Assembly: GCA_964016885.1 (NCBI GenBank)
Contig: OZ024741.1
Location: 339,822,001 to 339,886,000 of the forward strand
Origin: Eledone cirrhosa
Lineage: Eukaryota
Direction of reading: 5' to 3'
DNA: 64,000 nt
In this document: piece after piece, positions 3,400 to 56,444 of the stretch
Layout of the letters: every line of letters starts with the position of its first letter
Numbering within the stretch: the first letter of the stretch is position 1
Program-made: the position numbers and the translations under genes
Notes under the pieces: model-generated
What the model saw: only the letters and a program-made list of their open reading frames with translations
Databases searched by the model: none
What the model was told of the DNA's origin: nothing

Positions 3400-3578
3400 G
3401 AAAAGGTATGACCCTGACGGCAGAGCTCAAGCCGTTTCGGCGGCTATTTCTGGACCAGAAATAGCCGTCGAAACGGCTTGAGCTCTGCCGTCGGGGTCAT
3501 ACTTTTTCCTATTTCCCACTCTACTACCCTAAGTATTGAGTACTCTGGTGCGTTATGGTCTATCTGGTTCCTTCGTTA
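3400..3578 (+). mobile_element. Miniature PLE footprint (inverted HHR 3' half + direct HHR 3' half + tail) in (TA)n
   Basis: Palindrome centred on CTGGACCAG whose arms match 26923-26980, followed by the tail matching 26981-27060 and ending GTTA(TA)n. Confidence 0.85.
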
Positions 3579-4315
3579 TATATATATATATATATATATA
3601 TATATATATATATATATATATATACATGTGTGGTGTGTACATATATATACACACACTAATACAGACATACATGTATTTAAATAACAATATGTTCACACAT
3701 ACATATAATATAATAAATACATTTACACGTAACATGGAATATATTACGTTAGAAACAATTGAAGAAGGCCACGACATAAACGATACTTTTCGTATATGGG
3801 ATCGATTTAATCGACTTTCCCTTCCCCTTCAAATTTCTGGCCTTGTGCCTATATCATAAACCATTATTATTGTTTGAATTATGCTTCATTACTTTGAATT
3901 ATGCTTCTTTCCCATAACCTGCCGAGCTTCGTACTGATACCTCAAGCAAAATTTGGTAATACATACATTTAACAATCGTACGAATAATAGTATAAGGTTA
4001 TAAAGAAAACAGTAAATGACTTTTGTAAGCTGTTTAAATTAAAGATGCCCTTCTCTAGACATGGATCTTGCTAGTACAAATTATGTACGTACAAGTCATA
4101 TGTACGTACACAAACATATGTATATGTACAAACACGTACGTATTTATGTATATATAACATTGATATGCTTTATTTACAATGTATGTTAGCGCATGTATGT
4201 ATGTATGTATATATATATGTGTGTATATATATATAAATGAAAAGTGGCGAGCTGTGTTGTTGCAAATATGATATATATAATAAAATAAAGAATTAGAAAT
4301 AGAAGCCAGGGCTAT

Positions 4316-4383
4316 CCATCACCAGTGGTCTACTAGCCATCATAGGTATTTCTTCGCATTACAGACGATTTACCTCCGGCTAG
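4316..4383 (-). ncRNA. Degenerate copy of non-circularly permuted hammerhead ribozyme with k-turn
   Basis: Minus strand: CTAGCC G GA GGTAA A TCGTCTG TAATGCGAA GAA ATACC TAT GA T GGCTAG TAGACCA CTGGTGA T. Same architecture as 33232-33299 with compensatory changes, but the core is mutated (U16.1>A, A6>G). Confidence 0.6.
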
Positions 4384-4509
4384 ATCAATACAAGAGAGAC
4401 AGGTAAACAAACACGAATGGTGAGGCAACGTAAAGAGATGAAAAAAATGAGAAAATCAACACACATACATACACACACACACATATATATATATATTTAC
4501 ATATATATG

Positions 4510-4551
4510 TTCCTGATGACTTCATACGAATGAAACAGTTCTAGCTCTGTA
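4510..4551 (+). ncRNA. Truncated type I hammerhead ribozyme (same family as 18798)
   Basis: TTC CTGATGA CTTCATACGAAT GAA ACAG TTCTAGCT CTGT A. Similarity to the 18798 copy stops exactly at the GUA cleavage triplet. Confidence 0.6.
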
Positions 4552-4613
4552 TATTCTCTCTCTCTCTCTCACACACACACACAAATATATATATATATAT
4601 ATATATATATAAG

Positions 4614-4734
4614 AGAATTAGGATTTAGCTTCAAGTATGGCTGTATACAGATACGTATTGGAATTTCGTATTTCTAATACGAAATTCTAATACATACCTG
4701 TATACAGGTATGCTTGAAGATAAATCCTAATTCT
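4614..4734. repeat. Imperfect ~120-bp palindrome adjacent to (TA)n
   Basis: AGAATTAGGATTTAGCTTCAAG...CTTGAAGATAAATCCTAATTCT inverted arms; a partial third copy lies near 4993-5011. Confidence 0.75.
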
Positions 4735-4862
4735 ATTCTATCATAAGTTGAGCCATCTTATGCAGTTTGATATGCAAATGAAATTAAGCACCTCATGTAC
4801 ACAGACGAGAAAATCATATTTTTCGCCTGTTTTCAACTCCGGCAGTCGCAAGAGTGAGATGG

Positions 4863-4901
4863 ATCGTCCTGATGAGAACCAGTTCGAAATGCATCGACGA
4901 T
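4863..4901 (+). ncRNA. Minimal type I hammerhead ribozyme
   Basis: Stem I ATCGTC/GACGAT, core CTGATGA, stem II GAA-CCAG-TTC, GAA, palindromic stem III ATGCAT, cleavage triplet AUC (C4895). Confidence 0.8.
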
Positions 4902-52539: not shown

Positions 52540-52627
52540 TCCTCTTGATAAGTTGGCAGACCTCGCAAGGACTCTATATCTTTGATATATTGTTTTTGTT
52601 TATGCCACGAAACTACGTAGTCGAGGA
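52540..52627 (+). ncRNA. Type I hammerhead, U3-A8 variant
   Basis: TCCTC TTGATAA G(T)TGGCA...TGCCAC GAA ACTACGTAGT C GAGGA; cleavage GUC (C52622). Confidence 0.82.
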
Positions 52628-53130
52628 ATTTAGGAACAGTTTAGGTATGATACATTTTATTACTAATTATATCTAAATGTTTCTTCTCTCTTCATAATGT
52701 ATTTTTAACTCTGATACTGGTTCAGTCTAGTTCAAACTGAATTGGTCTGTCCCAGTCATTCATTGAGCAACATCGGTGAAGTTGGCACCCTTAACTCACA
52801 GTTGGGTGCGGATGCATTCATGTATATATGTGTGAGTCCGCATGTATCTGTGTGTTTTTACATATATTAATAACTCCCTCTGGTCGAGCAATCTTTGAAG
52901 TGTGGGGACAACTGGAAAGCTTCCATTACTCATACTTCTCGCCTTCTTCACTACCTCTTCTACGGCCTCGATATGAATACCCCCTCCGCCTCCGTGGTAT
53001 TTTCTTCGTGGTTATAAGAGGCTTAGCTCTGTTTCTCGACCGTTATATCGCGTGACTATCTCCCCCTCCGCCTTTTGGGATTCTTTCTCACGTCGTGTAG
53101 ACGCGTTCTTGAGACTAGTAAAATGAGGTA

Positions 53131-53218
53131 TCCTCTTGATAAGTTGGCAGACCTCGCAAGGACTCTATATCTTTGATATATTGTTTTTGTTTATGCCACG
53201 AAACTACGTAGTCGAGGA
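53131..53218 (+). ncRNA. Type I hammerhead, U3-A8 variant
   Basis: Identical to 52540-52627; cleavage after C53213. Confidence 0.82.
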
Positions 53219-53453
53219 ATTTAGGAACAGTTTAGGTATGATACATTTTATTACTAATTATATCTAAATGTTTCTTCTCTCTTCATAATGTATATATATA
53301 TATATATATATATATATATATATATATATATATATATATATATATATACATATAATACATATATATATATATATATATATATAAACACACACACACGCAC
53401 ACACACACACACACACATATATATATATATATATATATATATATATATATATA

Positions 53454-53557
53454 TAACGAAGGAAATGTGGTAAGGAACCAGGTGGACCATAACGCACCAA
53501 AGTACTCAATACTTGAGGTAGTAGAGTGGGTAATAGAGGGGGTCTTACTGGTTCCTA
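53454..53557 (-). mobile_element. Miniature PLE footprint in (TA)n
   Basis: Tail matching the intact element plus inverted arm GGGGTCTTACTGGTTCCTA. Confidence 0.88.
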
Positions 53558-55012
53558 TATATATATATATATATATATATATATATATATATATATATAA
53601 ATAAACACACACACACACGCACACACACACTCACACACACATATATATATATATATATATATATATATACATATGAAAGGTAGGGTTTTTCTTTGGTTGC
53701 TAAAGAGCAGTGGTTAATTAGTCACCGCTTCTAAAATTCACATCAAGGCTATGAAAGTATTTATTCCATGAACATTTCCTATATGATTCTCTACCATACT
53801 AAAGGCCTGGGTTGTAATTTGTAACTTTATAGCAATCAAGCTTGACCGTTGAGGCTGGAACACATGTTTTCAATTGGAGAGAGCACAGACCACTCTAAAA
53901 CAATAACAATAATTGTATGAAACATCAAAACTACAATTAACAGTTCCACATAGTGAACACTGTTTTATCTAGCAAGAACTTGCTGTAGAGGTACAACCTG
54001 CTGGCCACAGATGGTTCCAGAAATCATTACAGAATAGATAGCAGCTTGAAATATGGGCCAGTATGTTGCAACAGATTCACTTTTGATGTACATCTAACAT
54101 AGGTGGAGAATTGACAGAGGCGTTAGAACGTCGGATAGAATGCTTTATGTTATTCGTTCCGGTTCTATGCTTTCTGAGTTCAAATCCAGCCGAGGTCATC
54201 TTTGCCTTTTATCCTTTCGAAGTCTATAAAAGAAAAGTGTCAGTCTAGTACTAGGGTCGATTCTTCCTCTCTTTGGAAGAAATCTGCTGTATTCAGGACT
54301 AGAGAGGGATGGGCTCCGCCAGTCTTAAAATGCCCAAGAAAAGCTGTATGTCAATATTGCACCCCTACATACCTAACAGTGGGAAATATTATTCGTAAAT
54401 AAATATGATTTTTGCTCAAGAGAGAGGATACTTTGTTGGTAAAGATGTCACTAGTTCATCCTGACGTTGTTAACCGATCCTTGCAATAAGAATGTGTTAA
54501 ACAGATTGTCCCTAGTCTTATACACTCAGCAGACATCGTTGCGTGGTAAAGTAAAACCTATTTTATCAATTATGGCTTCTCATAATTGTTATCAACTTCG
54601 ACCCAATCTATGGTGAAAAGGTATTTGGTATGTTTCTATATCAAGAACAACATTTTCCAATATATATTTGTTGATTTAAAGGTGGTTTGCTGCTATTTCT
54701 AGCAGGTCAACGGATAATATTAACCCCATTCTTGATCGGTATTTGTAGAGTTGTTGTTACTGCTGTTTAACTATGTTTTATGCTTGCGTGTGTAGATGCA
54801 TATATTTAAAAACTAATACATACACTCACATGTACACACATACACTCACACACTCACATATGCAATTACACACACACACCATATATATATATATATATAT
54901 AGGAACCAGTCTACTACCTCAAGTATTGAGTAATACATACACTCACATGTACACACATACACTCACACACTCACATATGCAATTACACACACACACCATA
55001 TATATATATATA

Positions 55013-55094
55013 TAGGAACCACTCTACTACCTCAAGTATTGAGTACTTTGGTGCGTTATGGTCCACCTGGTTCCTTACCACATTTCCTTCGTTA
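55013..55094 (+). mobile_element. Miniature PLE footprint in (TA)n (with a partial duplicate at 54900-54932)
   Basis: TAGGAACCA stub fused to the tail through CCA microhomology. Confidence 0.85.
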
Positions 55095-56287
55095 TATATA
55101 TATATATATATATATATATATATATATATATATATATATATATATATATATATATATATATATATATATATATATATTTATATATATATACATTTATATA
55201 TATGTATATATATATATATATATTCACACACAAACATACATATATATATATATATATATATATATATATATATATATATATATATATATATATATATATA
55301 TATATATATATATATATTTATATATATATACATTTATATATATGTATATATATATATATATATATTCACACACAAACATACATGTATATATATATATATA
55401 TATATATATATATATATATATATATATATAGTTATATATAAAATAAATATATATTTGTGTGAGGGGAGACTTACGAATATGGAATTTCTTTGGTACACAC
55501 AAATGTTCAATTCAGTTAAGCAAGACTGTTCAATGGAATATTTGTGAATCTGCTAGAGAGAGAATCCTACAGTTTTCTATAAGATATTTCATGTTATTAC
55601 AATTATCTATATTAAATTATAAACTTTGGAAACCTGTATAGAACAATTCAGAACAATATAGGAAAATACGGTGGTATATATATATGTATATGTATATATA
55701 TATATATATAAATATATATATATATATATATATATATATATATATATATATATATATATATATATATATATATATATATATAATTATATATGTAAATATA
55801 TATATATATATAATTATATATATATATATATATATATATATATATATATATATATATATATATATATATATATATATATATATATATATATATACACATA
55901 TATATATACATATGTATATATACATATGTATATATATTAATATGTATATACATGTATATATGTACATATATGTGATTATATATATTTATGTGTGTGTGTA
56001 AATACATATATACATTTATATATATATGTATATATGTACATATATGTATATATATATATATATATATATATATATATATATATATATATATATATATATA
56101 TATATATATATATATATATATATATATATATATATATATATAAATGTGTGTGTGTGTGTGTGTGTACATACATATATACATATATATAAATATATATATA
56201 TATGTATATATGTATGTATATATGTTTATATATATATATATGTCTGTGTATATACATACACACAACTGCACACACATATTTATATAA

Positions 56288-56444
56288 TAAAAAGTTTAAC
56301 CCCGACGGCAGAGCTGAAGCCATTTCGACGGGTATTTCTGGACTCGGGGTCAAACCTTTTCCTATTACCCACTCTACTACCCTATGTATTGAGTACTCTG
56401 GTGCGTTATGGTCCATCTGGTTCCTTACCACACCTCCTTCGTTA
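56288..56444 (+). mobile_element. Miniature PLE footprint
   Basis: Inverted HHR 3' half, then TCGGGGTC..TTTTCCTA plus tail ending GTTA(TA)n. Confidence 0.82.

Follow-up and report, generated by a model that had tools for sequence, protein, structure and literature searches.

The 64,000-nt stretch of the Eledone cirrhosa genome analyzed here (contig OZ024741.1, forward strand, positions 339,822,001 to 339,886,000; hereafter, the window) contains a full insertion of a Penelope-like element (PLE) of the Hydra clade together with miniature copies of it (minis), in which an inverted and a direct arm end at two fixed sites. The minis are probably dead-on-arrival products of Hydra-clade PLE integration, formed by twin priming on one RNA at sites positioned by two hairpins. 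The coupling of the two arms within one insertion is new here, as is the duplicated hairpin, which by its place in the sequence appears to accompany each terminus once. Twin priming, with one priming per target strand at fixed sites of one RNA, had been proposed in an earlier sequence-only reading of the window; the idea is probably right but was largely anticipated in print. It is not new in outline because in vitro results for another PLE match it (PMC11167929).

Positions in the element are numbered from the predicted hammerhead cut, +1 being the first base after it (cut after 26961), with +19 at 26980 and +99 at 27060. In all 11 copies that show a far (direct-arm) end, this end lay at +99, with TTA running into alternating AT. 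The near (inverted-arm) end was exactly CCTA at +19 in 9 of 12 copies and lay within 5 nt of that position in the other three, reading CATA in 3400 and 14980 (one change at +17) and stopping 4 to 5 nt short of +19 in 56288. At the near ends of 3400, 14980, and 18744, the cDNA strand has TAT instead of TAG, which would fit a primer that ended one base later, over a mismatch. The target and both outer ends have UAU in common. Two other UAU triplets, at +42 and +62, were never used as ends, and the earlier proposal of UA alone as the signal was not supported. An alternating-AT run of at least 7 nt adjoined 23 of 25 readable ends, while such runs make up 8.5% of the bases of the window, which is rich in TA, CA, and AAT repeats and contains one 200-N gap. 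The earlier statement that all copies lie in (TA)n thus held except for the left end of 56288 and the right end of 14980. Any target-site duplications would be masked by the (TA)n flanks. The dozen footprints counted before included nine minis of 82 to 192 nt that, like the full element, show both ends, whereas 38335 shows only the near end, 37392 is cut by the assembly gap, and 14980 is a chimeric stub. The sequence at 54901 repeats the first part of 55013 in tandem and is not a separate insertion; it belongs to a tandem duplication of about 116 nt (54814-55045), real or an assembly artifact, that includes the first 31 nt of this mini. The arms within 16836, and those within 33490, carry common variant alleles.

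All 10 two-armed copies of the family (nine minis and the full element) paired one near end with one far end (P = 0.001 under independent choice), in agreement with the two fixed termini described earlier. A scan of genome contigs for relatives yielded 17 loci with the same two ends; their contigs are low in GC, carry TA runs and hammerheads, and are presumably animal DNA inside bacterial bins. When all two-armed insertions were considered, with the arm type outside the family scored by eye, 21 of 23 were near/far (P = 3 × 10−5). These comprised 10/10 in the family, 6/7 in other families of the window (18744, 40964, 13579, 51461, 52222, and 4611; 31138 was ambiguous), and 5/6 in loci of other hosts (L008 7001-7318 and 7695-8134; L013 4851-6836, 8243-8391, and 8393-9140). 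The PLE identity of 51461, 52222, and 31138 is taken from their layout alone. Loci that were truncated, one-armed, or nested (L001, L010, L012, and L014 to L017) were left out of the scoring.

Downstream of each terminus, the leader RNA contains a bulged hairpin, which was overlooked in the sequence-only reading. It is 22 to 37 nt in size and consists of a 4-bp outer stem (RCUC/GAGY), a variable inner stem-loop, a 2-nt bulge, and then ACU; the bulge was UU in 16, UA in 5, and UC in 3 of 24 representatives. The hairpin was matched 38 times in 161,780 nt compared to 0 to 3 times in each of 10 shuffles. It was found behind 14 of the 21 hammerheads chosen as family representatives, where anchors were placed by sequence and pairing was not required. 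Three of three inner pairs were present in 16 of 25 candidates (shuffle mean, 1.4; maximum, 7). In the 24 representatives, the inner pairs were formed in 24, 22, and 20 cases, a result matched by 0 of 5,000 shuffles, and compensatory changes were detected at two outer pairs. G·U wobbles exceeded A·C (6 versus 1), indicating that the sense strand is favored. The covariation, which was strong at the inner pairs, was counted on anchored columns and was similar on a second, model-fitted alignment, which leans towards structure; MAFFT does not align the hairpin structurally. A model built from four copies outside the window recovered both window hairpins (E = 0.008 and 0.03), and a 25-copy model found them at E values of 0.009 and 0.004. 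No Rfam match near the gathering score was obtained for the hairpin (window 26850-27160; L002 700-1000).

The position of the hairpin was also conserved. The start codon is preceded by two copies in the window and in each of the six loci that include the leader (L002, L004, L005, L006, L007, and L011), and the spacing of the paired copies is 62 to 78 nt, about the tail length. The gap between terminus and hairpin was 3 to 6 nt in 9 of 10 curated terminus-motif pairs, near and far ends alike, after upstream queries made of TA or AAT repeats (22423, 55021, and L013:1061) and rows mis-walked through TA had been dropped. Several relatives end on bases other than UAU at the same 4- to 6-nt gap. By eye, the hairpin is also visible in published Hydra consensus sequences (PMC8557442), twice at the start of Hydra-1_Ajap, once in the tails of Hydra-2_Ajap and Hydra-2_Amil, and as variants in Hydra-1_Crog; the available parts of that paper make no mention of it. 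A further good match in the window (18631-18659, minus strand) has no hammerhead or TA end nearby. The insertion at L011 4885-7451, one full unit plus tail, starts at base 2 of hairpin 1 directly on (TA)n and has no inverted arm.

The inner junctions were different in all nine minis of the window, as the earlier reading had described. Junction overlaps of the minis are given in Table 1; the overlap was 4 nt in the full copy. Microhomology of at least 3 nt was found at 2 of 10 junctions against 4.9% expected (P = 0.083), and the earlier proposal that the two cDNAs join by microhomology thus found no support; 33490 could add a third such junction if an unseen allele is assumed. The inner ends of the two arms were correlated (Spearman coefficient, 0.79; permutation P = 0.007; n = 9 minis), consistent with two primings on one RNA. 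None of the nine far arms ended inside the tail, and an exponential arm-length model was rejected (Monte Carlo P ≤ 0.0014); random abortion as the source of the short arms, as had been suggested, was therefore not supported. The far arms of 22406, 53454, and 55013 stop at +17 to +24, i.e., at the near site. At the inversion point, a deletion was present only in 55013; the arms of 22406 and 53454 abut the near site, and those of the other six minis overlap.

Two other origins of the minis were considered in the light of these junctions. Self-priming by fold-back on antisense RNA or on the first cDNA, with endonuclease (EN) cleavage of the intermediate setting the tail-less end (PMC3846280, PMC8557442), would fit the near-perfect palindrome of 3400; a loop could be accommodated in 33490 and 16836, and a later asymmetric deletion at the palindrome center could shorten the direct arm. 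This origin is quite unlikely, because the inverted arm of seven of the nine minis extends further upstream and holds bases that the direct arm lacks. Moreover, the arms of 55013 and L013:8243 do not overlap, the inverted arm of the full element is without two indels of the unit that fold-back would have copied, near-only copies require no partner arm, and the wobble pairs favor sense RNA. Amplification of the minis from short masters, as families of their own resembling short interspersed nuclear elements (SINEs) or miniature inverted-repeat transposable elements (MITEs), appears very unlikely. Every B-type copy ends at −44 or before, with no long B copy in the window, two copies of the 40964 family have about the same 5′ end, and PLE-derived retrozymes exist (10.64898/2026.07.22.740005), all of which would agree with such families. 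However, no SINE/MITE clade was apparent because no junctions are shared among the minis, which also lack hairpin 2. Minis 53454 and 55013 appear to be separate products of the autonomous family, because their tails are identical to that of the full element and the junctions all differ.

Hammerheads were found with a purpose-built descriptor, which gave 0 matches in reversed controls. In addition to the cut used for numbering, cuts are predicted in the full element after 30484 (plus strand) and at 23961 (on the minus copy). Among the matches listed from an Rfam scan of the window (150 of 249), there was no hammerhead; all were microRNA-like, below threshold, and fell on simple repeats. The U3-A8 core variant is known from PLEs of Cercyon (PMC4209133). 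The whole hammerhead was present in none of the nine minis. A TATA-like box and an initiator match predict a transcription start at −41; two TATA-initiator pairs of this kind occur in the 3523-nt unit. The inner end of one arm each in 56288 and 33490 coincides exactly with the initiator A, and those of 3400, 16836, and 37392 lie within 3 nt of it. Near arms ended at the ribozyme cut in 53454, 12978, 16690 (+2), and L013:8243 (4 of 16; P = 0.007 in a uniform model, post hoc). These clusters suggest run-off from the 5′ end of the RNA, and since the inner ends coincide with the cut and with −41, copying to the end of a cleaved or capped RNA explains them better than abortion at random does. A cap-templated extra base, judged by eye, is compatible with 56288 and absent in 33490. 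The loop-II hairpin, as a cause of the stops at −41, seems too weak (−3.6 kcal/mol).

These results are consistent with the following scheme. The leader RNA, from the hammerhead to the start codon, bears the bulged hairpin twice, and each hairpin would load the protein carrying reverse transcriptase (RT) and EN and set the primer 3 to 6 nt upstream. The EN would nick both strands of the (TA)n tract, as observed in vitro for another PLE clade, and each nicked 3′ end would pair over about 3 nt with UAU and prime at one site; because each 3′ end primes one site, one arm would carry the 80-nt tail and the other would not. Both RTs would then travel towards the 5′ end of the RNA, with the far RT halting at the near primer, or alternatively both would continue to the end of the template and run off, the template ending at the ribozyme cut (+1) or where transcription starts (about −41). 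Homology between the two cDNA ends appears to be slight or absent where they are joined, and 1 or 2 filler bases are often present. With the paired signal at the 5′ end of the mRNA, an RT primed there would have only 19 to 140 nt to copy. Long insertions, such as the 1.3-unit direct arm, would need read-through or a tandem or circular template; the three untranslated region (UTR) copies in the full element differ by two substitutions and two indels, which do not decide among these templates. Inserted ends retain hairpin 1 and lose hairpin 2, and this loss would explain the absence of mini families and the need of PLEs for a partial tandem. The stronger form of this scheme is put forward only tentatively: twin priming would be programmed and obligate-style in Hydra-clade PLEs, with two hairpin loading sites whose spacing gives the tail, run-off minis as the default, and full copies formed only via read-through or circular RNA.

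Several points weigh against hairpin-positioned twin priming. The binding of RT by the hairpins is suggested by their position only. The hairpin was missed behind 7 of the 21 hammerheads and was not detected in the 40964, 51461, 52222, 31138, and 4611 families, though most of these show the layout; the terminus-to-hairpin gap of 18744 is 11 nt, and kinship of the sequences may inflate the shuffle tests. The run-off clusters are small and post hoc, and the putative promoter is a motif match only. In PMC11167929, the start sites showed no strand bias, hammerhead cleavage was not needed, and no RNA-seq reads ended at the cut, the latter two bearing on run-off. Overlapping arms (up to 60 nt) require strand displacement. 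Twin priming may also be right while the hairpins serve otherwise (in packaging, in the control of translation, in folding of the ribozyme, or, as DNA, in recognition by the EN) and the termini are set by UAU pairing in an unpaired stretch. This is in line with UAU at both termini, with the shared layout of families without a detected hairpin, and with the requirement of the D. virilis tail for EN recognition on DNA (summarized in PMC11167929). We regard it as rather unlikely, since UAU at +42 and +62 is unused, several relatives end on other bases at an unchanged gap, and one hairpin stands at each terminus, at both termini, and in several hosts.

The coupling of the arms had exceptions as well. 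The L008 insertion at 3180-7017 has both ends at one site (near/near), the arm type of 31138 is ambiguous, and the near-only copies 38335 and 51721 and the 14980 chimera show that the arms need not be coupled; perfect palindromes of the far/far type may have been lost or may be missing from the assembly. Near-only copies, the long near/near insertion, and a near stub joined to a fragment of another family are compatible with dual priming, in which a separate RNA serves each target strand and each chooses either site, a model described for L1 (PMC2837659). Dual priming is nonetheless unlikely, given 21 of 23 near/far insertions (P = 0.002 even when far/far loss is ignored), the correlation of inner ends within copies, and the lack of far arms ending in the tail.

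Table 1. Features of the window. Inner ends of minis are given as near arm/far arm relative to the cut, and overlaps are in nt (negative, filler).
Feature	Position	Strand	Remarks
Full Hydra-clade PLE insertion	23942..30583	+	In (TA)n; inverted near arm and direct far arm of ~1.3 units
Inverted arm of full element	23942..25968	-	Outer end +19; 2027 nt; takes in 3′ part of ORF
Inner junction of full element	25963..25988		4-nt overlap (TTAG) and 12-nt tandem duplication
Type I hammerhead	26873..26966	+	U3-A8 core, palindromic loop III, long loop II; predicted cut after 26961
TATA-like box (-70) and initiator match, A at -41 (26921)	26892..26927	+	Predicted transcription start, from motifs
Near site, UAU	26979..26981	+	+18..+20; putative priming site
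Bulged hairpin copy 1	26987..27013	+	Starts at +26; 5 nt after near terminus
Far site, UAU	27059..27061	+	+98..+100; putative priming site
Bulged hairpin copy 2	27065..27089	+	Starts at +104; 3 nt after far terminus; only where the pseudo-long terminal repeat (pLTR) continues into the leader of the open reading frame (ORF)
717-aa ORF	27152..29305	+	Telomerase-like RT and C-terminal GIY-YIG endonuclease, Hydra-clade motifs
Mini	3400..3578	+	Inner ends -40/-38, overlap 1; 13-nt deletion in tail; near-perfect palindrome
Mini	12978..13088	-	Inner ends +1/+8, overlap 0
Mini	16690..16801	+	Inner ends +2/+7, overlap -1
Mini, third subfamily	16836..16995	+	Inner ends about -31/-40, overlap -1; uncertain (no own reference); tail hairpin 1 deleted
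Mini	22406..22496	+	Inner ends +11/+18, overlap 0
Mini	33490..33681	-	Inner ends -35/-41, overlap 0
Mini	53454..53557	-	Inner ends +1/+17, overlap -2
Mini	55013..55094	+	Inner ends +11/+24, overlap 3 at junction; non-overlapping arms
Mini	56288..56444	+	Inner ends -41/-2, overlap 1; no clean TA run on left flank
Only far arm visible	37392..37529	-	Reaches 200-N assembly gap (37530-37729) at -39
One-armed near-only copy	38335..38374	-	Spans -20..+19; TA on both sides
Near stub	14980..14998	-	+16..-3; fused directly to decayed EN fragment 14995-15353 of another Hydra-type family
Second family	18744..18935	+	Same layout; C3-G8 hammerhead with cut after 18842; hairpin at 18870-18891
Third family	40964..41220	-	Same layout; minimal U3-A8 hammerhead with cut at 41107; no hairpin detected
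Fourth family	13579..14964		Short far arm (minus), long near arm (plus) with Hydra-type EN end; hairpin 13631-13658

The full element has a unit of 3523 nt with a 1179-nt 3′ UTR. For its 717-aa ORF, 2053 relatives were found at E ≤ 0.001 (8000 candidates scored), the predicted structure was confident (pLDDT, 93), and the top Foldseek matches were telomerase RTs. The Pfam scan of the ORF returned 0 families, and a search of PDB by sequence found no solved PLE protein. The ORF contains RDD at 349, VIY at 591, and YIG at 606, DKT (not DKG) at 117, and RLRWR at 35, where most relatives have MRWK. A CxCx5C linker is located at 572, one Cys lies between VIY and YIG, CxxC and CxH are present at 670 and 698, and CCHH is absent. 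By the motif definition of the Hydra clade (PMC8557442; Craig et al. 2021), the full element and the minis are assigned to a new family of this clade, of known architecture; the Naiad, Neptune, Nematis, and Poseidon clades were ruled out by domain order and motifs. Shared with the published clade are a single ORF with RT and C-terminal EN, DKT, the RW(R) variant of RWK, the linker, the lack of CCHH, and CxxC/CxH around the EN E/N, as well as the hammerhead in the pLTR, (TA)n targets, an inverted 5′-truncated copy, and a tail at one end. The element differs in its unit length, most there being under 3 kb (generally under 3 kb is a tendency in the source text and no diagnostic), in its tail of 80 nt instead of 30 to 40 nt, and in its U3-A8 core, the Hydra hammerheads of File S2 being C3-G8. 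It does not belong to the same family as Hydra-1_Obim.

The same layout was found in the 18744 and 40964 families, as the sequence-only reading had noted, with far ends at +93 and +143 from their own cuts, respectively. For 31138 the likeness was only partial, as no hammerhead was found and both outer ends lie near one site. The fourth family (13579..14964) had been overlooked. A retrozyme-like sequence at 52458-53290, in which a 591-nt unit is repeated in tandem, has two U3-A8 hammerheads (cuts at 52622 and 53213), lacks an ORF, and ends in (TA)n. At 4607-5023, a unit of about 315 nt combines an inverted arm, a minimal C3-G8 hammerhead (cut at 4895), and a tail measuring about 33 nt; the Hydra hairpin was not found there. 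A decayed Hydra-type EN fragment with a degenerate hammerhead-like motif (14995-15470) is joined without TA to the 14980 stub, and the fusion is possibly a two-RNA chimera. Several families are represented by further TA-flanked inserts, either hairpin-plus-tail or one-armed, at 51461-51764, 52222-52407, 33181-33420, 37243-37293, 39008-39206, 4510-4551, and 60066-60285; 51721 is a near-only stub like 38335. A perfect 276-nt palindrome with a (TC)(TA)(AG) center (30632-30907) directly follows the TA run of the full element. A non-LTR retrotransposon encoding AP endonuclease, RT, and zf-RVT, with an upstream ORF, occupies 6644-11502 on the minus strand and has two partial relatives (35987-36988 and 62599-64000). 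Dispersed repeats include a TA-flanked pair (13434-13512 and 46449-46637), a foldback family (51941-52199 and 35942-36039), and many copies of a SINE-like element (42818-54262).

The RTs of PLEs are the sister group of telomerase. With this kinship, an RNA element setting the register of priming next to a short region of alignment would be of evolutionary interest. A hairpin repeated once per start site would provide a direct handle on what specifies PLE priming; if its proposed role is true, no cis-acting RT signal would have been defined for a PLE before it, and it would offer a single explanation of the tail, the inverted 5′ copy, the partial tandems, and the excess of minis. The motif also marks the true ends of Hydra-clade elements, and abundant TA-flanked hairpins such as the 13 family copies in 64 kb are to be read as PLE debris, not as MITEs or microRNA precursors.

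The origin of the PLE tail and of the tandem and inverted structure was named as an open question in PMC8557442, where an inverted 5′-truncated copy and a 30- to 40-bp tail, often at one end only, were described. Head-to-head palindromes were ascribed to self-priming on an antisense template in PMC3846280. For an Anolis PLE in vitro, both target strands were cut and extended and RT started at two internal sites bounding the tail (PMC11167929). The Poseidon element PAc (Frangieh et al. 2024, PMC11167929) resembles the present family in these respects and in its AT-rich targets, and RNA downstream of the start sites was required there. However, PAc belongs to a different clade, its sites lie inside the ORF and not in the leader, and they are said to lack target homology, whereas 3 nt are shared here. 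The start sites were mapped without identifying what specifies them, and neither coupling of sites within an insertion nor a per-site signal is reported in the available parts of that paper. By eye, the PAc RNA in Fig. S1 of PMC11167929 appears to contain a pair of short, similar GGC-GCC hairpins with an AC-rich stretch after each, which may be an analogue in another clade.

Twin priming of L1 (PMC2837659), like that proposed here, gives head-to-head arms, a second internal priming on the same RNA, and a variable junction with weak or no microhomology. L1, however, first primes on poly(A) and its second site is variable, whereas both sites are internal and fixed here; twin priming is a minority route in L1 and the rule here, where overlap of the arms is frequent. 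The dispersed truncated ends and the U3-A8 variant are also features of minimal PLE hammerheads and non-LTR retrozymes (PMC4209133, PMC7229834, 10.64898/2026.07.22.740005). Many truncated PLE copies and opposite-strand hammerhead pairs are described in PMC4209133; in these systems the pairs lie 100 to 700 bp apart, and a circular template has been proposed. Unlike non-LTR retrozymes, the present minis form no tandem arrays, mostly have no whole hammerhead, and share no junctions.

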